The position numbers were made by a program, and so were the translations under genes. Positions 3,067 to 62,778 of a DNA stretch of 64,000 bases are shown here, one piece after another (position 1 is the first letter of the stretch; each line of letters begins with the position of its first letter). This stretch comes from Chitinophagales bacterium (GTDB taxonomy: Bacteria > Bacteroidota > Bacteroidia > Chitinophagales > UBA10324): assembly GCA_044227805.1 (NCBI GenBank), contig JBGAWA010000002.1, forward strand, positions 16,654 through 80,653. Reading direction: 5' to 3'. Below the pieces are notes generated by a model. It searched no databases and had not been told where the DNA came from. It saw only the letters and a list, made by a program, of their open reading frames with translations.

Positions 3067-3405
3067 TCAGGATGTTCTATCCAGGTATTTTTTTTTGGAT
3101 GGGCTCAAAGCAAATAAAGGGTATTTGAGCTGATTGGGGAATCGAATATTGGCATCGTGTATTAATGCGCTCCCTTGCGTGTTGAGGTTAACCAGAAAAA
3201 GTTATGAAAGAGGATAATCGTTCTATGCTGGGATTAAGCCTCTGTCTGATGCTAACTGCAAAAATTAGGCTCGGAAGATCATAGATAAATTCACAAGAAA
3301 GTATCTTTGCTCTGTTTATTATTTTTCATCTTACCTTTTTACCTACTCTTCTTCTATGTGTACTGCCATCTCAGTATCAGCATCCGGAGTCAATGTTGTT
3401 TCCCA

Positions 3406-4257
3406 ATGATCTGGCAACCATCAAATCTAAAGGGTCTTGTACTATTGCTGTTCATTTCATTCAGCCTCATGCTGCCACTCTGTTGCCATGCACAGCAATC
3501 ATCCTCCTGCAACTGTGCCGGCATGGCTCCTGCCGGAAAAGGAACCCTTTACATCACCGCAGGGTATAACCTTGACTGGTACACAGCCAGCGATATACAT
3601 TTTAAAGATCTTACCACGGATAACTACGATTTCACCCTTTACAAGGTGAAAGCCGAAGATCGCCCGGGCCTGCAGGATGTTTTACATGAAGACATTACCA
3701 TTCCGCAGTATTCTTTTCGTGGCGGCTATTGGTTCAACGATAAAAGAGACCTGGCCATTGAGATTAATTACGACCATGCAAAATATGTGATGATCCAGGA
3801 TCAACGGGTACACATGACCGGTAATTTCCGCGGTGAATATTATGATCGTGACACCACCCTGGGTACTGATTTCATACGCTATGAACATACTAACGGTGCA
3901 AATTATGCCATGCTGGATCTTGTTAAGCGATGTAACTTCTGGCATGCTGCTAATCAGCGGCATTGGATCAGCGCCGTGGCAAAAGCAGGAGTGGGGTTCG
4001 TGTTGCCCCGCACTGAATCATATATTGCCGGCAGCCACCGTAACGACACCTATCATGTGGCCGGATATGTTGCCGGCATGGAAGCGGGTTTGCGGTATGA
4101 TTTTCTGAAATACTTTTTTCTCGAAACTACGATGAAAGGATGTTTCGCTAATTATTCCAATGTGCTTTTATATGGTGATGGCATTGCCAGCCAGCATTGG
4201 TGGTCGGCTCAATATATTTTCACACTCGGGCTGCAAGCCCCGGTCAAAATTTTCTGA
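3406..4257 (+). CDS. Hypothetical outer-membrane beta-barrel-like protein
   Basis: Signal peptide (LVLLLFISFSLMLPLCCHAQ), alternating aromatic/polar pattern, terminal ...LGLQAPVKIF ending in Phe. Start moved to the ATG at 3406. No family recognised. Confidence 0.6.
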   Translation: MIWQPSNLKGLVLLLFISFSLMLPLCCHAQQSSSCNCAGMAPAGKGTLYITAGYNLDWYTASDIHFKDLTTDNYDFTLYKVKAEDRPGLQDVLHEDITIPQYSFRGGYWFNDKRDLAIEINYDHAKYVMIQDQRVHMTGNFRGEYYDRDTTLGTDFIRYEHTNGANYAMLDLVKRCNFWHAANQRHWISAVAKAGVGFVLPRTESYIAGSHRNDTYHVAGYVAGMEAGLRYDFLKYFFLETTMKGCFANYSNVLLYGDGIASQHWWSAQYIFTLGLQAPVKIF

Positions 4258-4347
4258 GTACAGTAAATACACTGTCTTATGAGTGCCTTCAGATGCGCAG
4301 CTGCAATCACGGCTGATGAAGTGTTGTGTGTAATGATTAAAAATAAT

Positions 4348-4381
4348 GAACCCGGATTTTTCCATTGAAGTATCCGGGTTC
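4348..4381. repeat. Solo hairpin related to module A of the repeat family (GAACCCGGAT-N14-ATCCGGGTTC)
   Basis: Perfect 10-bp inverted repeat. The loop and left arm (cccggatttttccattgaa) match module A of the ~160-bp repeat. Lies 36 bp left of the full copy at 4417-4577. Confidence 0.7.
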
Positions 4382-4416
4382 ATGATCAGCATCGGCACGC
4401 ATTCAGTATTTCTGCG

Positions 4417-4577
4417 TTAAACCCACTTTTTGCAGTTCAAAACGGCAACGGGTTTAACCCCGACGTAGAACTGCTTAGGGTTTGTGAAACATTTTCTTTT
4501 CTTGACAAATTGAGCAAACCCTTAGCAGTTTTATGTCGCAGCGAAGCGGGATTTTTCCATTGAAAAATCCGGGTTAA
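4417..4577 (-). repeat. Structured ~160-bp intergenic repeat, full copy (sub-family I), reverse orientation
   Basis: Its reverse complement aligns almost base-for-base with 62616-62778. Followed at 4578-4599 by a partial extra copy of the gaagcgggattt segment. Sits between convergent genes. Confidence 0.9.
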
Positions 4578-7739: not shown

Positions 7740-9365
7740 TTAGAGCGGCATTTTTCCAAACCAAAGTGTTTTACCGCCGGACGATTCACCAAAAAACACG
7801 ACAGATGTTTCTAACTCAATCGGTAAAAAGGGAAACTTGTTGTTGAGATAATACTTGCCTTGCTTGCTTACGCCGAATACGGCAGGGTCATTGATTTTGC
7901 CATTGCTGACATCTAACTTGGCCACCACCGGATACATCAGCAATTTGTATTTTGAATTGCCCAGTTCTTTCTCCGTGCGCATGCCATCTACTTCACCAAT
8001 CAGCCAGTCCATGTCTTTGCCGTCTGCGGTATGAAGCATCGTTTGCATGGCAGGTGCCACTTCACTGAATTTATTTCCTTCCTGCTTATCATATCCGTAT
8101 TGCGCCTTAAGCGATCCGTCGGGAGAAAACTGAAAGCACAGGAGGTCGCGGTATTGCCGTGACCCGTCGCCCTTAAGGGTGAAGTTCTGGCCAAACAGAA
8201 AAATATTTCCTTTGGGATCCACATCAAAATCACTGAGGTAGAATTTCTTGCCCTTGTAGGACGGTGACTTTTTCTGTGAGGGAGGTGTTTGCAGCTTTGC
8301 TTCGAATTCATCAAGGCTTGGCGCGCTGATAAAATCTAATTTACCGTTGCTGATCTTCGCCAGCTGAAAGCTCTCCCATTTCATGGCATCAGGATCATCA
8401 GAAGGGTTCACCACCTGGTTGAGGTATTTATCATCGCCTTTCGATGGCCCGAAGATGAAATAATCTTTATCTACCATCGCAATGCTGTTGATACTCCATA
8501 CTGTATTCGGACTTTTTATACTAATCCGGTCCTTCTGTGAAGCATCATTCCCGAAACGCATGAAGGTATAATTGTTAGGAGCAGGATCGGCAACTTTGCC
8601 AAGGCCGGGTCCACCCATGGGAGCAAACAGGATGGCGAGATCGTTATTGGACAGATCATCGGCATCGGCGTCAAATTCAAGATTGGGATTCCAGACGAGT
8701 TGCGCCTGTGCCACAGTCTGAGGATACTGAAATTCAAAATCCGTTTTGTTAACCATGTCCAGATCCTTGTTAAAAACTGCCGCCAGGTATTTTTTATTAA
8801 CCAGGTTGGGGTCATCGCCCTTTTGTGCTTTGGTGCCCGCTACTAACAATACACTGCCATCCACATCATTTTCCGCTTTTGTCACAAGGGAGTATTTGTT
8901 GCCTTCATCTGATTTAGGTTTTAGTTTTTCCAGCAGTTTCACGTCTTTGTCGTAACCGCCCCAAAACCAGCTCCAGTTATAGTTGATCTGCTTGCGTTTG
9001 AGTACCAGCGTTCCGGTAAGATTGTTTTCTACCGAAACAGCTTCCACCACATAATTCTCGCCCCGGTATTTGAACCACTTGTATTTTTGGCGGGCTTTCT
9101 CAAAATCAATCTGATCAGTTATCAGATTTTTGTAATTGAATTCAAGGTCAAACTGATAGGTTTCAAACTTCACCTGTTTATCGTTTGCCTTGGTAACAAA
9201 GGTGAGCTCAAGCAGGTTTTTGGGTTCTTCAATGTTGATGTTGCCGAGATAACCGCGATTGGCTTTTCCGGTGATCTCATAAGTCTTTTCAATGGAGAGT
9301 TTCTGCGCCTTTGCCTGCCATCCGAAAAGGAGGAGCGCAAGAAACAGTAATGAATATAATTTCAT
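7740..9365 (-). CDS. Hypothetical secreted protein (541 aa)
   Basis: Long ORF with a clear signal peptide (MKLYSLLFLALLLFGWQAKAQ). No motif I can assign to a family. Confidence 0.75.
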   Translation of the reverse strand: MKLYSLLFLALLLFGWQAKAQKLSIEKTYEITGKANRGYLGNINIEEPKNLLELTFVTKANDKQVKFETYQFDLEFNYKNLITDQIDFEKARQKYKWFKYRGENYVVEAVSVENNLTGTLVLKRKQINYNWSWFWGGYDKDVKLLEKLKPKSDEGNKYSLVTKAENDVDGSVLLVAGTKAQKGDDPNLVNKKYLAAVFNKDLDMVNKTDFEFQYPQTVAQAQLVWNPNLEFDADADDLSNNDLAILFAPMGGPGLGKVADPAPNNYTFMRFGNDASQKDRISIKSPNTVWSINSIAMVDKDYFIFGPSKGDDKYLNQVVNPSDDPDAMKWESFQLAKISNGKLDFISAPSLDEFEAKLQTPPSQKKSPSYKGKKFYLSDFDVDPKGNIFLFGQNFTLKGDGSRQYRDLLCFQFSPDGSLKAQYGYDKQEGNKFSEVAPAMQTMLHTADGKDMDWLIGEVDGMRTEKELGNSKYKLLMYPVVAKLDVSNGKINDPAVFGVSKQGKYYLNNKFPFLPIELETSVVFFGESSGGKTLWFGKMPL

Positions 9366-10499: not shown

Positions 10500-10537
10500 T
10501 TCAACGCGGATTTTAGCATCGAAAAATCCGCGTTGAA
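10500..10537. terminator. Perfect 15-bp hairpin between convergent genes (sequence related to repeat module A)
   Basis: TTCAACGCGGATTTT-agcatcga-AAAATCCGCGTTGAA. Lies between the stops at 10451 (+) and 10558 (-). The core CGGATTTT/AAAATCCG resembles module A. Confidence 0.7.
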
Positions 10538-10557: not shown

Positions 10558-13500
10558 TTATGGATGTGCGACAAACAAGCCGTAACTGACATTCACTTCC
10601 AGCAGGTTGAAGTCGGCGCCATCAGTCGGACCTTCTCCTGTTATGTCGCTCACATTATATCCGAAAGCTTGACCGGTCACATCCGCTTCCACCTGGTTGA
10701 TGTCATCGCCGGCCACTTGTCCGTCCTGGTTCACATCACCACTGTAAATCGACCAGACACTAGCCACCAGTATCATCTGCGGATTCGGGTTGTTTACATC
10801 CGGATATGCCTGGGAAATATCGGTGGAGAAATCAAAACTCCCCTGTGTCATCGGTACCGGTGCAGCGCTCCATGTTTCCAGCGTGTTTTTGCTTTTAATA
10901 GAGATGAAATACGAATTGGTGCCGACAGCATTATTGAAGATACAATGGATCATACCATCCGTATGCAACACCCCACGGAATGTGTCAATGTCAGCAAAAG
11001 TCATATCATCATGCAAGATCACCAAGATGGTATCCACTTCATTCGGATCTGATCCTACTCCCTGGTTAAGCAATACAGATTTCATAAATCCGGGATTGAA
11101 CTCATCCATGTATCCCTGCATAAAGCATTTTACATCTAAAGCAACCGTAGCGGAACACCCTTCATCCACCTGGTTATTACAGTTATCATCAATGCCATTG
11201 GAGCAGATTTCACTCATGCCCGGATGAACGGCTGCCAGTGTATCATTGCAATCGGTATCAAAGAGTGAGGTATTGGCAGGTTGAATACAAGCCTGAATGG
11301 GAGCGCCTGCTCCGTATCCGTCACCATCGCCATCGGCGTAGTAGGTAGTGCTGATATCAATAGTGACATTCGCCGTTACTATACTATCGCAACCCACTGC
11401 ATTGGAATAAGTATGCTGGTATGGCCCGCTCACATTCACGGATCCTCCCCAGGGCAAGGTGTAGCTGTCGCAACCTGTTGCACTAAATGAAGTAGGCTGA
11501 CTGGAATGGTTGATCATTACAGTCGCAGTTACCATGCTATCGCAGCCTGCCTGACTGATATAGGTATGATGGTAGGCGCCTGAAACCGTTGCAGTTTCTC
11601 CCCAGGGCAGTAAATAACTGTCACAGGCAATTGTATCGAAAGAAGTGGGCGGCGTTGAATTGTTGAGCTGAATGGAGTCTGACGCCGTGCAGCCATTAAG
11701 ATCCGTAACTACTACGGAATAATTACCGGCAACAGATATGATGATCCCACTTGATGTTTGTTCCGGTATGGTGTTCCAGGAGTAGCTCACCGGAAAGGCA
11801 GTGGATGATGCCAATGCAAGCGCCAGGCCGGGGTTACCTTCGATGCCACCGTTACAGCTTGGCCCATACCCGGCTACTGAAACTTTTACCGTGTTCAGTG
11901 GCGCGCTGCTGTTTTGAATGGTGGCTACGCTGCGGCGCGTGATGGTGGTGGTATTGCCGCCTGCATTCCAGTTACCTGTTGCACTTGTATCAAATGATGC
12001 AATGGAATTATCTGCATAACGGGCTTCAATTCTTCTTACCCCGTTTGAATTATTTGCACCAATGGGAATAACGGCCGGAAAATCTCCGGTTGCTGAGGTT
12101 CCTGCCTGTAAATAAATATCATTGATGGCAACTGGTAATTGTGATTGCGTTGTCTGTGTGGGGATAGCAGTGCGGGCCATATAAGAAAATAATGGGTCAC
12201 CGCTTCCTGCTGTGTTATCATAGATCAGGATATATTTCCCGCTGATACAGGCATTCGCTGATCCTTTCAAAAAGGCACCATCATCAGCCGTGGACACTGT
12301 TCGTGCAGTAGTGGCAATGTCAAGCGCAGTCATCTGCTTCAACCCCACAAAATTAGGCACTGATGGAGGGAAATTTCCGCTTCCATTGATGGCGTATCCG
12401 ACTCTGATATTATGCGTCTGCCCGGCATCGAACCTTGTAGCATTCCCGGTAGGTTGAACATATATCCAAACCGGTCCGCTGCTGCCCGATCCATCTGTGG
12501 TGAAATAGTTGGAAAGCGTATTGGTATTAAAAGCAGTTTGATTCCATATGTTGCATGCACCATATGAGGTTGCGGCATCCGGTGTAGCGCCATTGGTTAC
12601 ACCAATGCCTAATCTAAGATCATAACTGGTATTCGGAACAAGGTTGTCTATCCTGAAACAAATAGCAAATGGAGTACGCGTATCATTGCTGCTGCCGGCC
12701 GATTTACTTCCAAAATATTTGGGAACCACCAGCTCGGTGAATACGGCGGGAATACTGATGTAAATATTGATGCTTACATCAAGGCTGACTCCCGGAGCAG
12801 TAGCCTGCAAAGCAAAATAGCCTGGCTGATCTATTTGCAGATCCGCAAAGGTGGAAACTCCGGCAACGGCTTTTTTCTTTACAGTGCCGGTGAGTGTTCC
12901 TGATCCGCTATACAGTGAAATAGTAATCGTATCTGTGAACAGGTTGTCAACGGTATTGTCAGGCCTTCTCGCTTCCACGGTAAAACTGGAAAGGTTGGTA
13001 TTCGTAACGCCTGAAGAGGGAACGCCGGTAAATCGCAGGAAGGTTGCTTTCGCCAGCACATTGAATGGCGCACTGTTGCCGAAAGCAAGGGTATCACCTT
13101 TTGTTCGTGTGGCCCTGATCACAACCTGATCTTCTGCCGGGCTGTAGGTAACATTGGTAAAGGTTACGCTATTGGTGCCCGAAAGTATTGAATCCGTAAG
13201 CACTCCTCCGAGGCTTCCGCCTCCTGTTACCAGGGAGAGCGTGACCACCGTGTTGGTGGAAACATTCTGTGCGACATTGAGATTGTCCTGCGCCTGCACC
13301 ACGACGCTGAACGGATAAGTTTCCTCTGCATCCGCATCGCCATTCACATGGGTGATCACCAGCTTGGTTGGAGCGTTACTGGCGAGTCCGGTACCGCTCA
13401 CCGGGATGAATTGTGTTTGAGCGCCCGTGCTTGCGCAGGAAATATTACCATTGAAACCAATCGCTGAGGTGGGGGTGAAGCGGACATCAATATTGGTGGA

Positions 13501-22078: not shown

Positions 22079-22205
22079 GAGCCAGCAAATTGCATTTGGA
22101 TTTTCCTATTAAGCTCATTGCTGTTTTTAACCCACATCCAGATATTCAAAACATTATCGAGTTTTACCCGGCATGGAGAAGCATTTACTTCTTTGCAGAT
22201 AAGAA

Positions 22206-22366
22206 TTAAACCCACATTTTGCATTTCAAAAACGCATGGGGTTTAACCCCGACGCAGCACTGCTTAGGGTTTGCGAAACATTTTCTTTTCTTGAAAAAAT
22301 GAGTAAACTCTTAGCAGTGCTAAGTCGTAGCGAAGCGGGATTTTTCTACTGAAAAATCCGGGTTAA
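22206..22366 (-). repeat. Structured ~160-bp intergenic repeat, full copy (sub-family II), reverse orientation
   Basis: Near-exact reverse complement of 45052-45211, roughly 93% identity by eye. Followed by a partial re-duplication (ttaagtcgtagc at 22380-22391). Confidence 0.9.
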
Positions 22367-24061: not shown

Positions 24062-24276
24062 GTTGAGTGGTTTTTGGATTTATTTAATTCAACTAATGTA
24101 GGATAATTTTATTTAGGATTTGCAATAGTGCCGGTTCAAAAGTACCGGCGAAAGACAAGTGGAGGATTCACCAGTGAAGCAGTTGTATGCCAGGATGAAA
24201 CCTGCTGCAGGTTATGACGCTAACATGCGGGTTGAGATAGACTCCGTGTAATCCGTCAAATGAGACAGGAATAAAA

Positions 24277-25548: not shown

Positions 25549-25590
25549 GCGGTAATTTTTTTGTAAAGATAGCACTACAGGGTCATGATA

Positions 25591-25748
25591 TACCCGGATT
25601 TTTCAATGGAAAAATCCCGCTTCACTACGATACAGCACTGTATAGGGGGTACTCATTTCTGTCAGAAAAGAAAATGTTTAAAAACCCAAGCAGTGCTGCT
25701 TCGGGGTTAAACACGTAGCAGTTTTGTACGGTACTGTGCGGGTTCAAA
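25591..25748 (+). repeat. Structured ~160-bp intergenic repeat, diverged full copy, forward orientation
   Basis: Module A is intact (cccggatttttcaatggaaaaatcccgcttc). The long stem and tail are recognisable but diverged (cagcactg...cagtgctg core retained). Confidence 0.8.
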
Positions 25749-38904: not shown

Positions 38905-38931
38905 ATCCGGGATTTTCCATGGAAAAATTCA
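38905..38931 (-). repeat. Solo module-A-like palindrome between convergent genes
   Basis: ccgggaTTTTCCATGGAAAAattc resembles gcgggatttttccattgaaaaatcc of the repeat. Lies between the pheS stop (38889) and the stop of the convergent gene (38968). Confidence 0.55.
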
Positions 38932-38967: not shown

Positions 38968-40380
38968 TCAGAATACTAATTTATTCAGTGCCTTTACCAT
39001 ATTTCTGCGGCTGCTGTATTTCACTTTGAATTCGTTGGTGAGTGTTTTTGCCATAGCGACGCCGGCAGGAAGCGATTGTATTTTTCGCAGGGTGCTCACG
39101 ATATAATTGTAATGTTCGCGGCCCATATGCTGCTCGGCATAACGACGGAGGGCGACACGGTAAACAGCTACCAGTTCTTCCGGAAACCGGTCTTTGAGCA
39201 GATCATAAAAATCCTCCGCGAATTCAAGCGTGGCATTTTTTTGCAGCAGGGCGAGCAGCCGCTGCCAATATTGTTCTTCCACAAAAATGGTTGCCAGTGC
39301 TCGGATACCTTTCCATCCGAAATTTTTTTCGGCTTTCAGCGTACCAATGATCTTTTCAACTTCCGGCTTCCACTTGTCTGCCGTATAGGTGGCCTTCACT
39401 TTTCGATAATATTCGATGCGGAACTGATCATAAAATAATCGCAGTCCTGATTGCCTTACCTGGCGCACGTCGTTCTCTTCTTCTGCAATTTGTAAGAGTA
39501 ATTCATCCCATTCCGAACTTGCATACAGCCGTCCTTTCTGCTGATCGCTTCGCTTGCTTTCCTTAATGAGTTCTTTGGCAGCTTCAAATTGGTGTTGCTG
39601 GATGTGTTCATCAATCAGTTGCCGGCGGAAAGTGCGTATGCGAAGATTATCCGCCAGCACTTTCTTCGCCTCCTCCGGTCTTCCCAGGCGATGGAGGATC
39701 AGCATTTTTTTTCGTAAAAAAAATTCTTCGTACCGCTCATTCATGATATCCTGGTGGCGGCTGCCCGTTGCAAGAATCAACTGATCAAGCAGTGTTACCA
39801 GGCGAAGCTGTTGTTCTTCATTCATGACGGCTGCCAGGAGTACATCAATCCAGTATTCTTCCAATCCTTTATCCCGGTAGGCGGGCCGGAGCGCTTCCTG
39901 CAAAGCCGTTTCAAAAATGAGTTCCTTCAGTTGCGGTCCGGCATCTGTATGGAGGATGGCATCCAGTATGGAAAAAGCGGTTACAATTTTCCCGTGCAAT
40001 AGTGCATCCGGATCATCAGCGCGGCCCACCAGCGGATGAACTAATCCGATCAACCCAACGGCGAGGTAAAAGGGATCGAGGTAATTTTTGATGGCCAGCT
40101 GGCCGGCTGCCTGCCCCAACAAGGCATCGAGGCGCTTTGCCACTGTTGGCGCGTAATGGGACTGCGGAGGTGGATAGCCAATGATCTGCTGCAGCAGCAG
40201 CAGGTATTTTTCTCTGCCTGTCATCTTTAACCTGTCGGCAAAGTGCAGCAGGAATTCAGTTGCCAATTCAGGGTTTTCTGCGGCATATATTTCTATGAAT
40301 TCACGTAATTCTTTATCTCTTACCCGCTTGAGTAAGGATGTCATCACAGTGGACGCAGCGGGATTTTGTGCCGTATCCAT
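38968..40380 (-). CDS. Hypothetical all-alpha protein (470 aa)
   Basis: Long uninterrupted ORF with helical-repeat-like composition. No recognisable motif. Confidence 0.7.
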   Translation of the reverse strand: MDTAQNPAASTVMTSLLKRVRDKELREFIEIYAAENPELATEFLLHFADRLKMTGREKYLLLLQQIIGYPPPQSHYAPTVAKRLDALLGQAAGQLAIKNYLDPFYLAVGLIGLVHPLVGRADDPDALLHGKIVTAFSILDAILHTDAGPQLKELIFETALQEALRPAYRDKGLEEYWIDVLLAAVMNEEQQLRLVTLLDQLILATGSRHQDIMNERYEEFFLRKKMLILHRLGRPEEAKKVLADNLRIRTFRRQLIDEHIQQHQFEAAKELIKESKRSDQQKGRLYASSEWDELLLQIAEEENDVRQVRQSGLRLFYDQFRIEYYRKVKATYTADKWKPEVEKIIGTLKAEKNFGWKGIRALATIFVEEQYWQRLLALLQKNATLEFAEDFYDLLKDRFPEELVAVYRVALRRYAEQHMGREHYNYIVSTLRKIQSLPAGVAMAKTLTNEFKVKYSSRRNMVKALNKLVF

Positions 40381-40451
40381 TTTCAGTGGGAGATGAGAGA
40401 CTTCAAAGTCATAGGCATGCCGGCAAATCTGAAGCAGTGGTTATTCATTTT

Positions 40452-40497
40452 GCGTTAAGCCCGGTTCTGCTTTGAAAGGTAAAATGCGGGATTAACC
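40452..40497 (+). repeat. Solo tail module (3' hairpin) of the repeat family
   Basis: gcgTTAAGCCCGgttctgCTTTGAAaggtAAAATGCGGGATTAAcc aligns with GTTAAACCCgttgccgCTTTGAACTGCAAAATGTGGGTTTAA. The stem bases differ but pairing is kept (TTAAGCCCG/CGGGATTAA). Confidence 0.7.
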
Positions 40498-40758
40498 TGT
40501 AAAGATAACAAGTGATCAGCAGGAAATGTCCTTCATGAAAAGAACTTTCGAATTAAAGTCATTGCAATTCTATTTATTGATTTTTTTGAAATCGTATTCG
40601 CCTTTTGGTATGTTTCGCACTATCTCTTCACTAATATTGGAGCTGACTCCATCACAGCGTTATTGGGCAGCGTTCTTCGCAAAGTGAATCGCTATCATTT
40701 CTGATGAAACAGCGGTAAATTGCTTTCCGGTTTTTCAATGGAGGCCATTGCACTGCTG

Positions 40759-42029: not shown

Positions 42030-42218
42030 CCGTTATACCGGTATTAGCACCTTTGGTCAGCGGAAGGGCATTCGGCTTCATTATTCTGCATGTACTTTTT
42101 GTGGAGATGGTGCAGACAATGGATAATCCGGAACATGAGCTTATGCCTGCTTCAGTAATGCACGCACCGCACAAGGCATAAGCAAGAGTAGAATGTCTGA
42201 ATATACACGCTGCTGTAT

Positions 42219-42243
42219 GGAACTGCAAAATGTGGGATAAAAT
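42219..42243 (+). repeat. Solo fragment of the repeat tail motif, 40 nt upstream of gcvT
   Basis: ggAACTGCAAAATGTGGGataaa matches the invariant tail core GAACTGCAAAATGTGGGTTTAAA. Confidence 0.6.
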
Positions 42244-42282
42244 CTATCTTTGCGCAAACAGGAAACATCAGCACGGCTGTTT

Positions 42283-45051: not shown

Positions 45052-45211
45052 GAACCCGGATTTTTCAGTAGAAAAATCCCGCTTCGCTACGAATTAGCAC
45101 TGCTAAGGGGTTGCTCATTTTTTCAAGAAAAGAAAATGTTTCGCAAACCCTAAGCAGTGCTGTGTCGGGGTTAAACCCCATGCGTTTTTGAAATGCAAAA
45201 TGTGGGTTGAA
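45052..45211 (+). repeat. Structured ~160-bp intergenic repeat, full copy (sub-family II), forward orientation, directly upstream of nuoA
   Basis: gaacccggatttttcagtagaaaaatcccgcttcgctacgaattagcactgctaagg...caaaccctaagcagtgctgtgtcggggttaaaccccatgcgtttttgaaatgcaaaatgtgggttgaa. Ends 34 nt before the nuoA ATG. Confidence 0.9.
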
Positions 45212-49055: not shown

Positions 49056-49157
49056 TTCAACCCGTAGTTTTCTATTGAACCTGCGTTTGGCAGTTCAAAA
49101 CAGCAGCTCTACACGGTGGTGAAGCGGGATTTCTCCATTGAAAAAATCCTGATTGAA
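49056..49157 (-). repeat. Internally deleted copy of the repeat (tail plus module A, central long stem missing) inside the nuoH-nuoI spacer
   Basis: ttcaacccgtagttttc/tgaacctgcgtttggcagttcaaaa (tail, partly duplicated) joins directly to gaagcgggatttctccattgaaaaaatcctgattgaaaatg (module A). Confidence 0.75.
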
Positions 49158-52903: not shown

Positions 52904-52947
52904 GTTGTAACGAAGCGGGATTTTTCAATGGAAAAATCCGGGTTAAA
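52904..52947 (-). repeat. Solo module A of the repeat, abutting a stop codon
   Basis: gttgtaacgaagcgggatttttcaatggaaaaatccgggttaaa ends 1 nt before the TAG (52948-52950) of the minus-strand gene. Confidence 0.85.
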
Positions 52948-55115: not shown

Positions 55116-55157
55116 CTTAGGGCAATGGCATTTTTCAATTGAAAAATTCGGGACTAA
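55116..55157 (-). repeat. Degenerate solo module A of the repeat
   Basis: cttagggcaatggcatttttcaattgaaaaattcgggactaa aligns with cttagcag...gcgggatttttccattgaaaaatccgggttaa. Confidence 0.55.
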
Positions 55158-55203: not shown

Positions 55204-56232
55204 ATGCTTCAGCTTTCTGTAATCATTGTCAACTACAATGTGCGTTTCTTCCTGGAGCAGGCATTGCTGTCGGCCAGGAAAGCCATGCAGCAGTTATCCG
55301 CTGAAATAATTGTGGTGGATAATAATTCCGTTGACGGCACCAGCGAAATGATGCGCGAAAAGTTTCCGGAAGTAATTTACCTGTATAACAAAGAGAATGT
55401 GGGCTTCGCGAAAGCCAATAACCAGGGAATCGCCATAGCCAAAGGCAAGTATGTCTTATTGCTCAATCCGGATACAATAGTCGAAGAAGACACCTTTGAG
55501 AAGTGCCTTCGGTTTATGGAGACGCATGAGGATGCCGGGGCAGTTGGCGTGAAGATGCTGGATGGCAAAGGAAATTTTCTTCCCGAATCAAAACGTGGAT
55601 TTCCATCTCCCAGGGTAGCCTTCTACAAAGCATTCGGACTGGCACGGCTGTTTCCGACATCAAAAATTTTCGGCGGTTATCACCTCGGTTATCTTTCTGA
55701 AAATGAAACGCATGAAGTGGATGTGCTGGCAGGCGCTTTTATGTTTATCAGGAAAACGGCGCTGGACAAGGCAGGCTGGCTCGATGAGTCTTTCTTCATG
55801 TATGGCGAAGACATCGATCTTTCCTACCGTATCGTAAAAGCGGGATTTAAAAATTATTACTTCCCCGATACGCGCATCATTCACTATAAAGGAGAAAGCA
55901 GCAAGAAAGGCACGATGAATTATGTGCGCATGTTTTACCAGGCCATGATCATCTTTGCGCAAAAACATTTCAGCAGCAATGCCGGATTTTATATCCTGAT
56001 GCTGAAGGCGGCCATTTATCTGCGCGCGCTGTTATCTGTTGTCTATTCTTTCCTGCGGCGCTGGAGCTTGCCCATTGCAGATGCACTCACCCTGTACGGT
56101 GGTATGCTGCTGCTCAAGAATTACTGGCAGTACAATGTGAAGGTGGCTGAAGGACTGACATATCCCGAAGAATACATCTACTTCATTATTCCCTTCCATG
56201 ATTGGGATCCGGCTCCTGCTCCATTTTGTTAA
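55204..56232 (+). CDS. Glycosyltransferase family 2 protein (with C-terminal TM segments)
   Basis: LSVIIVNYNVRFFLEQAL, VVDNNSVDGT, LLNPDT and YGEDIDLSYR are GT2 (GT-A) signatures. Confidence 0.9.
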   Translation: MLQLSVIIVNYNVRFFLEQALLSARKAMQQLSAEIIVVDNNSVDGTSEMMREKFPEVIYLYNKENVGFAKANNQGIAIAKGKYVLLLNPDTIVEEDTFEKCLRFMETHEDAGAVGVKMLDGKGNFLPESKRGFPSPRVAFYKAFGLARLFPTSKIFGGYHLGYLSENETHEVDVLAGAFMFIRKTALDKAGWLDESFFMYGEDIDLSYRIVKAGFKNYYFPDTRIIHYKGESSKKGTMNYVRMFYQAMIIFAQKHFSSNAGFYILMLKAAIYLRALLSVVYSFLRRWSLPIADALTLYGGMLLLKNYWQYNVKVAEGLTYPEEYIYFIIPFHDWDPAPAPFC

Positions 56233-57016
56233 ATTCAAAAATTTGCGGCTCGGTGAAGCAAGGGAGAAGAAACTGGTTATCGTGGGAAACAGGGAAGAAT
56301 CCTCGCGCGTGGAAATGCTGCTCAACCAGGCTAAAGTAAAAAACGATTTTATCGGTTATGTATCCACGCAGGCGGAAACACAGCACAGCGCACATCATCT
56401 CGGCGAAGTGGAACAGCTTACTGAAATTGCCCGCATCTATAAAATTGATGAGGTGATCTTTTGCTCCAAAGACATTGCTTCGCAAAAAATTATTGAATGG
56501 ATGACCCAACTCGGGACAGACCTGGAGTACAAAATTGTTCCGGAAGATTCACTCAGCATCATTGGCAGCAATTCAAAAGATGCGCCCGGTGAATTATATA
56601 CCATTGAAATTAAACTGGCCATTGCAACACCGTTTAACAAGAGAAGCAAGCGCCTGTTTGACCTGGCGGCGGCATTTTTCCTGCTACTCACGTTGCCGTT
56701 GAATATTTTTATAATCAAAAGTCCGGCGGGATTGATAGCCAATATTTTCAAAGTATTTGCCGGAAGAAAAAGCTGGGTTGGCTATGCTGGTGGCATACAA
56801 CAGCAATATCAGCTTCCACCCTTGCGGGAAGGCGTGCTCACCCCTCTTGATGAACTGAAAAATATGCAACTGGATGATGCCGCCGTTTCCCGTATCAACC
56901 TGCTCTATGCAAAAGATTACACGGCATCGCATGACGCAGAATTGTGGTTGAAATGCTTCCGGCTGCTGGGATCGGTTTCTGTACCACCATCATCAGCTCC
57001 GCGTGCCACCGGTTAA
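56198..57016 (+). CDS. WbaP/sugar-transferase-like protein lacking an obvious catalytic core (possibly the 3' part of a fused or frameshifted gene)
   Basis: Rossmann-like KKLVIVGNREES segment, then KRLFDLAAAFFLLLTLPL (start of a bacterial sugar-transferase domain) and a ...SWVGY.../...LLYAKDYTASHDAELWLK tail. The central catalytic stretch seems absent. Overlaps the GT2 ORF by 35 nt in another frame. Confidence 0.6.
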   Translation: MIGIRLLLHFVKFKNLRLGEAREKKLVIVGNREESSRVEMLLNQAKVKNDFIGYVSTQAETQHSAHHLGEVEQLTEIARIYKIDEVIFCSKDIASQKIIEWMTQLGTDLEYKIVPEDSLSIIGSNSKDAPGELYTIEIKLAIATPFNKRSKRLFDLAAAFFLLLTLPLNIFIIKSPAGLIANIFKVFAGRKSWVGYAGGIQQQYQLPPLREGVLTPLDELKNMQLDDAAVSRINLLYAKDYTASHDAELWLKCFRLLGSVSVPPSSAPRATG

Positions 57017-57052
57017 CCCTTGTTTACCATTGGTTGCAGCCCACCGGGCTTT

Positions 57053-57172
57053 GACATAGAACCTATGTAGGGTTGTTCATTTTTTTCATCACGAAAATGT
57101 TACACAAGCCCTAAGCAGCTTAAGCCAGTGGTATGCCCGTTGCTGTTATGAACCACAAAATGCGGGTTTATG
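57053..57172 (+). repeat. Diverged copy of the repeat lacking module A (long stem plus tail), 30 nt upstream of the decarboxylase ATG
   Basis: gacatagaacctatgtagggttgttcatttttttcatcacgaaaatgttacacaagccctaagcagcttaagccagtggtatgcccgttgctgttatgaaccacaaaatgcgggtttatgaa is collinear with 62653-62778. Confidence 0.75.
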
Positions 57173-62531: not shown

Positions 62532-62615
62532 TCGGTAAAGTTAGTGTTTCAGGTAGGAAATGCTTCCAACCCGTCAATGGCAGTATTCAATCATGGCATG
62601 GTGGAATTTTTCAAT

Positions 62616-62778
62616 TTAACCCGGATTTTTCAATGGAAAAATCCCGCTTCGCTGCGACTTAGAACTGCTAAGGGTTTGCTCATCTTTTTCAAGATAAGAA
62701 AATGTTTCACAAACCCTAAGCAGTTCTACGTCGGGGTTAAACCCGTTGCCGCTTTGAACTGCAAAATGTGGGTTTAAA
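62616..62778 (+). repeat. Structured ~160-bp intergenic repeat, full copy (sub-family I), forward orientation (reference copy)
   Basis: ttaacccggatttttcaatggaaaaatcccgcttcgctgcgacttagaactgctaagggtttgctcatctttttcaagataagaaaatgtttcacaaaccctaagcagttctacgtcggggttaaacccgttgccgctttgaactgcaaaatgtgggtttaaa. Preceded at 62603-62615 by a partial duplicate (ggaatttttcaat). Confidence 0.9.

Follow-up and report, generated by a model that had tools for sequence, protein, structure and literature searches.

The Correia elements of Neisseria, ERIC, and RUP are bacterial MITEs (miniature transposable elements with inverted repeats), and the Correia and ERIC elements target TA. In the Bacteroidota, described MITEs include MITE239, MITE464, MITE700, and BrickBuilt of Porphyromonas gingivalis, which are related to the insertion sequence (IS) IS5, and MITECca01 of Cardinium, which is related to IS982 (PMC4596501, PMC9769881, PMC5771137). 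Here we describe a dispersed repeat in a 64,000-nucleotide stretch of a Chitinophagales bacterium genome (contig JBGAWA010000002.1 of assembly GCA_044227805.1, positions 16,654 to 80,653 of the forward strand; below, the window). The repeat is a non-autonomous DNA transposon (MITE) of 152 to 153 bp that encodes no protein, a reading to which we give a probability of about 0.88. As in the definition of MITEs in PMC4596501, it is shorter than ~500 bp and lacks coding capacity, and it has terminal inverted repeats, a target duplication, and dispersed, polymorphic copies. The element is mobile, targets TTNAA, and has undergone a recent burst in one Chitinophagales species cluster, where its old copies decay like neutral DNA. 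The family is apparently undescribed; it is of an ordinary, well-known kind and represents no new class of RNA or mobile element.

Like other bacterial MITEs, the repeat is short, noncoding, intergenic, and present in multiple copies with inverted ends and target duplications, and it also shares with them stable hairpins, self-insertion, and a presence that differs between strains. However, it duplicates a 5-bp TTNAA target, whereas Correia and ERIC elements use TA, and it is not one long palindrome but consists of a separate 5' hairpin (hairpin A), a long internal stem (stem B), and a 3' module. The Bacteroidota MITEs resemble it in their intergenic position, in the occurrence of one MITE within another, and in breaking short-read assemblies (PMC4596501, PMC9769881, PMC5771137). 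Their inverted repeats (GAGACC... or ACGT...) are unrelated to those found here, and each has a named parental IS, whereas the ends of the Chitinophagales MITE start with CCC and no parental IS with matching ends was found in the window.

The evidence for mobility comes from orthologous sites that are filled in one strain and empty in another. L042, a Logan contig of a closely related strain with 93 to 95% nucleotide identity to the window, aligns to the window up to position 62773 and again from position 62619, with 5 bases common to both alignments. In a three-way minus-strand alignment that includes a second such contig (L043; ~95% identity), both contigs read GGACT-ATTAAA-TTGAAAAAT, an empty site with a single TTTAA on the plus strand, whereas the window is filled and reads GGACT-T(TTAAA)CCCACATTTTGC...GAAAAATCCGGG(TTAAA)TTGAAAAAT. 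These alignments delimit both the element and its duplicated target. The reciprocal case was also found: L042 ends in a copy, reading ...GCAAAATGTGGG, then TTCAA, and then TTGAAAAATTCGGGG, where the window has an unbroken palindrome. The L042 junction is ...GTGGG-TTCAA-TTGAAAAATTC, its window counterpart is the uninterrupted ...TTTTTCAATTGAAAAATTC, and the family profile matches L042 positions 11772 to 11833 with its 3' portion (E = 5e-13). The features of these two sites are given below; here and throughout, coordinates are those of the element proper, with the target duplication left out.

62620-62772, plus strand: reference young copy, 153 bp, with the 5' inverted repeat CCCGGATTTTTC and the 3' end GCAAAATGTGGG
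62615-62619 and 62773-62777: TTTAA target duplication of the reference copy
55127-55152, plus strand: empty target in the window, the palindrome GGCATTTTTCAATTGAAAAATTCGGG, at whose central TTCAA L042 carries a copy

In addition, the contig L045 contains a young copy nested in the stem-B loop of an older copy, with TTCAA at either side, and an old copy at 57017-57166 is common to the window and L042 and absent from L033, a locus of a more distant relative. The original prediction, made from the letters of the window, had offered a MITE as one candidate and had proposed a comparison of filled and empty sites; the sites above, with their target duplications, together with the terminal inverted repeats, bear this candidate out. 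We also considered whether the insertion sites are always hairpin loops, but a convincing fold around the target was obtained for only ~4 of 12 reconstructed empty sites, so insertion into hairpin loops is kept as a tendency only.

The ends of the element are imperfect inverted repeats, CCCGGATTTTTC... and ...GCAAAATGTGGG. The 5' terminal inverted repeat is CCCGGATTTTTCAATGG, and the 3' one is the reverse complement of GAACTGCAAAATGTGGG; CCCGGATTTTTCAATGG matches CCCACATTTTGCAGTTC at 11 of 17 positions and the older 3' ends at 10 of the first 12, which agrees with the loosely inverted termini noted in the original prediction. Ten young copies, from the window and from other contigs of the species, were available for comparing the flanks. 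Nine of them are bounded on both sides by the same 5-mer TTNAA (TTTAA in three, TTAAA in two, TTGAA in two, TTCAA in one, and ATTAA/TTTAA, with one mismatch, in one), and all four values of N were seen. Since N differs between copies yet agrees within each, TTNAA is a true duplication of the target. The tenth young copy (L048b) is flanked by TTAAA on its left side and by TTGAA on its right side, after which come a duplicated 3' terminus and TTAAA. At L048 13780-13810, the end of this copy reads ...GCAAAATGTGGG TTGAA TTGCAAAATGTGGG TTAAA, and the outer 5-mer equals the left flank, an arrangement consistent with nested insertion at the TTGAA within the 3' module of an older copy and subsequent recombination.

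The same flanks bear on whether the repeat could be a palindrome element of the repetitive extragenic palindromic (REP)/bacterial interspersed mosaic element (BIME) or IS200/IS605 type, moved by an HUH enzyme (RAYT or TnpA) that reads terminal hairpins and a short target. The hairpin at the 5' end and the short, specific target would suit such an enzyme, and some IS200/IS605 elements insert beside TTTAA-like sequences. However, IS200/IS605 elements have subterminal hairpins, lack terminal inverted repeats, and insert 3' of a fixed tetra- or pentanucleotide with no target duplication, as HUH single-strand transposition leaves none. In the repeat described here, the ends are inverted repeats and the flanking 5-mer is copy specific and paired; it is thus a genuine duplication rather than a constant segment of the element, and insertion of the IS200/IS605 type is excluded. 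REP/BIME units are clustered and accompanied by a RAYT gene in the genome, and the window yielded neither a RAYT nor a TnpA gene. REPs are palindromes of 20 to 40 bp, most of them tagged at one end with GTAG or CGTC (PMC3733652), whereas the present unit measures ~150 bp and has inverted ends and a target duplication. The REP-like candidate of the original prediction was accordingly dropped, and an HUH-mediated origin has next to no probability.

Within the window, the five near-full copies and two further places reported in the original prediction align as one family. A profile built from the five near-full copies recovers them where they had been reported (E = 1e-47 to 1e-55); its further matches are about ten fragments and one full-length but diverged copy, at 57014-57170 (E = 1e-15). 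The full-length copies of the window thus comprise four young and two older ones, with a unit of 150 to 153 bp. The hairpin A motif, GGATTTTTC-N4-GAAAAATCC, which forms a 9-bp hairpin, occurs 11 times (up to 3 mismatches), whereas 0.1 occurrences are expected by chance. Besides the reference copy, the family members of the window are as follows.

4422-4573, minus strand: young copy, 152 bp, with TTTAA at either side
22211-22362, minus strand: young copy, 152 bp, of the CAGTAG subfamily, with flanks ATTAA and TTTAA
45055-45206, plus strand: young copy, 152 bp, with TTGAA at either side, between crcB and nuoA
25593-25742, plus strand: older copy, 150 bp, with 75% identity to the young copies and 14 of 21 pairs in stem B
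57017-57166, plus strand: old copy, 150 bp, with 65% identity to the young copies
49080-49152, minus strand: internally deleted derivative, 73 bp, with TTCAA at either side
52904-52942, minus strand: 5'-end fragment (inverted repeat and hairpin A), preceded by TTTAA
40429-40490, plus strand: 3'-end fragment of a decayed copy, between a promoter-like box and the start of a 470-amino-acid gene
42209-42236, plus strand: 3'-end fragment immediately upstream of gcvT
24176-24231, plus strand: decayed 3'-end fragment
22131-22172, minus strand: 3'-end fragment of an older copy, adjoining the young copy at 22211-22362

The copy at 22211-22362, next to this older 3' remnant, occurs also in the same-species contigs L036, L037, and L041. 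The flanks of the older copy at 25593-25742 are ATATA and TTCAA, their match having been lost. The sequence at 57053-57172, which had been reported as a copy lacking hairpin A, is really the full-length old copy at 57017-57166, in which decay has left 4 of 9 pairs in hairpin A and 12 of 21 in stem B; this copy lies flush against the stop codon with which the upstream glycosyltransferase gene ends. For the copy reported at 49056-49157, the internal deletion was confirmed but the extent was not: the true unit is the 73-bp derivative listed above, in which about the first 50 nucleotides are fused to the last 22 nucleotides of the unit. Copies lie in either orientation with respect to the neighboring genes, between convergent or tandem genes, and the window contains no tRNA gene.

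Proteins that the window encodes are also present in NCBI, ENA, and Logan assemblies, and their close relatives are labeled as Chitinophagales or Chitinophagaceae metagenome-assembled genomes. When the two fully open frames of the element were compared with 5.8 billion proteins, only 14 small spurious open reading frames (ORFs) were found, all from the same species cluster. Where their identities are lower, the cause is a 1-nucleotide difference in loop length and not divergence. These gene calls of 63 to 94 amino acids (P0043 to P0056; e.g., L045 10001-10234 and L048 5177-5413) are the element translated in its two open frames. The contigs of four of the 14 matches, which derive from samples and assemblies containing the same species (e.g., GCA_964600605.1), add six young copies and several old ones.

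Two relatives with ~80% identity, GCA_019694975.1 (loci L033, L055, and L056) and GCA_016717285.1 (loci L031 and L054), share synteny with much of the window, and their orthologous spacers contain no copies. The L031 counterpart of the 45055-45206 site is a 115-bp intergenic region without a copy, the copy at 25593-25742 is absent from the orthologous spacer between the glyoxalase gene and serS in L055, and the fragment at 40429-40490 is absent from the syntenic site of L056. In the ~51 kb of GCA_019694975.1 and ~42 kb of GCA_016717285.1 that were sampled, a single truncated and diverged copy was seen (L031 15961-16066). Exact DNA patterns gave no match in the JGI metagenome contigs, a DNA pattern gave none in viral contigs, and BLASTN gave none in plasmid and phage collections. 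In the public genome collection, a degenerate 28-mer pattern did not find the element among the matches listed, and an 18-mer pattern gave 22 single matches in unrelated taxa, about the number expected by chance, none of which contained the element; since they returned chance matches only, these scans are uninformative, not negative, for that collection. The family thus appears to be confined to one uncultured Chitinophagales species cluster, apart from the decayed copy in one of the relatives of ~80% identity.

If the window, with six full copies per 64 kb, is typical, a genome would hold a few hundred copies. Short-read contigs (L001 to L008, the end of L042, and the start of L048) stop inside the repeat, and those with the neighboring rhodanese gene all terminate within it, as is usual when an assembler meets a high-copy repeat. 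In practice, the element has real, though modest, consequences: the MITE fragments short-read assemblies of this Chitinophagales lineage and seeds public protein databases with spurious ORFs, and its insertion polymorphisms are possible strain markers in metagenomes.

The strong predicted structure of the repeat had suggested a family of small or cis-acting structured RNAs with selection acting on the hairpins. In the reference copy, hairpin A (9 bp) and stem B (21 of 23 pairs) exist as originally described, the predicted fold is very stable compared with shuffled sequence (z = -6.4), and 86% of the cells are paired over an alignment of 16 copies, with 6 pairs changed on both sides. However, the reverse complement folds equally well (z = -6.4), the shuffled alignments reach 84% paired cells, and 6 or more doubly changed pairs are reached by 46 of 500 shuffles. 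Among the young copies, 13 of 60 paired columns (22%) and 22 of 94 unpaired columns (23%) are variable, and the non-Watson-Crick cells comprise 5 G.T, 4 A.C, and 4 others; this balanced split between G.T and A.C favors neither strand. No Rfam family matched the repeat at gathering or E-value thresholds, and none reached its gathering score in the whole window, in agreement with the original statement that no named family was recognized; with E values of up to 10, the reference copy gave weak matches far below the gathering scores, mostly to eukaryotic microRNA and small nucleolar RNA models.

The fate of the hairpins with age also argues against an RNA function. The young copies are 87 to 98% identical (mean, 93%) and have 9 of 9 pairs in hairpin A and 19 to 21 of 21 in stem B; their strong hairpins are intact only because these copies are nearly identical. 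In six old copies (65 to 75% identity to the young ones), hairpin A retains 3 to 9 of 9 pairs and stem B 9 to 16 of 21, so that between a quarter and more than half of the long-stem pairs are gone, and RNAalifold no longer recovers helices A and B once old copies are included. The old copy common to the window and L042 is 88% identical between the two, whereas the aligned flanking DNA is ~95% identical. Copies lie in both orientations, no Bacteroidota-type -7 box was found in the young copies, and the reference copy contains no terminator-like site and one promoter-like match that is no better than those in shuffled sequences. Moreover, insertion polymorphism with target duplication is not a property of RNA genes. 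The decay of old copies, the equal variation of stems and loops, the equal folding of both strands, and the lack of an Rfam match leave a selected RNA structure unsupported, and we regard the RNA explanation of the original prediction as very improbable. Most simply, the hairpins can be read as part of the master sequence of the MITE that receives no upkeep after insertion.

Two further helices of the original prediction, a closing helix (C) that would create a three-way junction and a 3' hairpin (D), consist of the terminal CCC and GGG and the TTAA and TTT of the duplicated target, pairing with the internal GGGGTTAAACCC. TTAA and TTT belong to the target and not to the element, so that the three-way junction is partly built from flanking DNA. 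The internal GGGG-TTAAA-CCC at window positions 62733 to 62744 (about positions 114 to 125 of the element), the source of these helices, looks as if a 3' end and a 5' end had been abutted across a 5-bp TTNAA spacer; a tandem or circle junction would have this form, and so would an old nested insertion.

Elements with inverted ends and a duplication of fixed length are characteristic of mobilization in trans by a DDE-type transposase (PMC4596501), and we infer that the enzyme moving the MITE is of this type. Presumably encoded elsewhere in the genome, it would bind both ends and insert the element at TTNAA by a 5-bp staggered cut, thereby duplicating TTNAA. The hairpins would be passed down from the master copy and may include transposase-binding sequences, rather than being kept for an RNA function. 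Members of the IS1380 family have CC termini and duplications of 4 to 5 bp (ISfinder family summary). Because this family combines C-rich termini with AT-rich duplications of 4 to 5 bp, it may be the most likely source of the enzyme, although this assignment is tentative. The ends of the MITE are CCC...GGG, and its duplication is 5 bp (or, in an alternative reading, a 3-bp TNA with termini A...T). In the IS1380 family, ISEcp1 makes 5-bp AT-rich duplications such as ACTCA, TAATA, and TAAGA, with no fixed motif (PMC6061673), and IS1247 also makes a 5-bp duplication (PMC3281130). The MITE resembles both in its termini starting with CC and its 5-bp AT-rich duplication; its strict TTNAA target, however, differs from the variable duplications of ISEcp1. 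The left inverted repeat of ISEcp1, CCTAGATTCTAC, matches the 5' end of the MITE at 8 of 12 (9 of 17) positions, and the other comparisons gave 7 to 8 of 17, values that are suggestive only.

The IS1380 transposases are used as the prokaryotic outgroup of piggyBac, whose elements have CCC termini and a TTAA duplication (PMC10813416). The CCC...GGG termini and the palindromic TTAA-like target of the MITE are similar to those of piggyBac; however, piggyBac elements duplicate the 4-bp TTAA and the MITE the 5-bp TTNAA, the inverted repeats are unlike beyond CCC, and the host here is bacterial. The termini thus fit the piggyBac superfamily, and the duplication length does not. A literature search gave no relevant bacterial IS with a TTNAA target. 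A more specific proposal would be an IS1380-type transposase with strict TTNAA specificity, parallel to the TTAA specificity of piggyBac, and with a bias to AT-rich hairpin loops, including loops that resemble the element's own modules. We consider this doubtful; if it were true, the self-nesting and the reciprocal sites between 95%-identical strains would mean recent or ongoing activity. If the partner enzyme were found, the strict TTNAA target and the CCC...GGG ends would be useful for understanding how IS1380 and piggyBac are connected, and this combination is the sole feature that a specialist in mobile DNA might follow up.

Some observations weigh against the MITE interpretation or against the mechanism proposed for it. 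First, a 5-bp TTNAA duplication is formally inseparable from a 3-bp TNA duplication with termini A...T, and the flanks of two copies (ATTAA/TTTAA and GTTAA/TTTAT) agree better with the 3-bp reading, which would indicate other transposon families. A TAA stop codon at 57014-57016, within the TTAA preceding the old copy at 57017, has the same position in a relative without the element, and this fits better with the 5-bp reading. Second, no recognizable transposase was detected in the window when its unannotated ORFs were scanned with Pfam and NCBIfam, and no autonomous element with the same ends was found in the window or in the DNA-pattern scans of the genome and JGI metagenome collections. The Pfam labels of the loci that overlap the window, or of their counterparts in relatives, include no transposase either, and the window ORFs outside these loci are ordinary genes or hypothetical genes without a family; the original prediction had likewise reported no transposase in the window. 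Third, a protein search seeded with ISEcp1, taken from plasmid pC15-1a, yielded ISEcp1-like proteins only (identity of at least 83%), and a tblastn search of plasmids with this query gave no Bacteroidota relative among the 60 matches listed or the ten most frequent genera. Given that neither a transposase nor an autonomous element was found, the IS1380 assignment is drawn only from the end sequence and the duplication length. Fourth, 11 cells of the 16-copy alignment are changed on both sides, whereas 4.6 are expected and none of 500 shuffles reaches this count. Most of the double-sided changes stem from a single A-T to C-G switch in the stem-B pair at alignment columns 44 and 106 (A-T in 10 copies and C-G in 5). 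This leaves some room for a weak pressure, acting on DNA or RNA, that preserves the palindrome.

Another explanation would be that the host has co-opted the MITE, for example, as a transcription terminator, insulator, promoter donor, or protein-binding site, so that its hairpins are now useful to the cell. Besides the few compensatory changes in stem B, this explanation gains from copies and remnants that often lie near gene ends and TAnnTTT(G/A) boxes (40499-40507, 42245-42252, and upstream of serS) and from lone palindromes resembling hairpin A just downstream of genes (4346-4383 and 10500-10537). However, no terminator- or promoter-like site above chance was found in or around the reference copy, the young copies have no -7 box, and copies are found in either orientation. 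Copies deteriorate with age, the old one shared with L042 changes faster than the DNA beside it, and the relatives do without copies at the same sites. We therefore consider co-option improbable and retain the reading of a MITE whose hairpins are not maintained.

The 470-amino-acid ORF at 38968-40380 (minus strand) was considered as a candidate autonomous element, as a palindrome resembling hairpin A and a collinear 3'-end fragment bracket it over ~1.59 kb. It was rejected because it has no Pfam or NCBIfam match, is single copy, and has an ortholog in GCA_019694975.1 in the same context, with pheS and a 3-hydroxyacyl-CoA dehydrogenase gene, without MITE-like flanks. The search of 5.8 billion proteins gave 15 proteins (query included), of which the four with a source name are all called "hypothetical protein," and the two NCBI entries are alone in naming an organism, Chitinophagales. 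The protein looks all-helical and evolves fast, given that it shows 65% identity in the relative, whereas the neighboring proteins that were checked show 87 to 94%. The ORF is a syntenic host gene.

Lone palindromes like the 5' hairpin (GGATTTTTC...GAAAAATCC) were observed outside the full copies at 4346-4383, 10500-10537, 38907-38930, and 55127-55152, the first two lying just downstream of genes. In two lone palindromes, the arms run into complementary TTNAA halves (ATGAA...TTCAT and TTCAA...TTGAA), so these are extended palindromes and not elements with a flanking duplication. The palindrome at 55127 is the insertion target in the L042 strain, and the empty target of the copy at 62620 resembles the same motif. 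Possible origins of the lone palindromes are old end remnants, native hairpins, or footprints.

TATCTTT(A/G) boxes resembling the -7 motif of Bacteroidota lie 8 to 25 bp from copies or remnants at ~40499-40507 (minus strand), 42245-42252 (plus strand), and ~25560-25570 (minus strand), upstream of the gene for the 470-amino-acid protein, gcvT, and serS, respectively. This proximity suggests insertions within promoter regions or 5' leaders.

Among the other genes of the window, the ORFs at 3307-4257 (plus strand; 316 amino acids) and 7740-9365 (minus strand; 541 amino acids) had no Pfam or NCBIfam match at permissive thresholds. The glycosyltransferase gene at 55204-57016 is split at 56193/56194 into overlapping ORFs of 342 and 272 amino acids. 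Relative to the orthologs of L042 and L033, which are intact and have 666 amino acids, ~188 bp are missing from the window, and the reading frame is shifted as a result; the split gene is either a pseudogene or an assembly error and is unrelated to the repeat.

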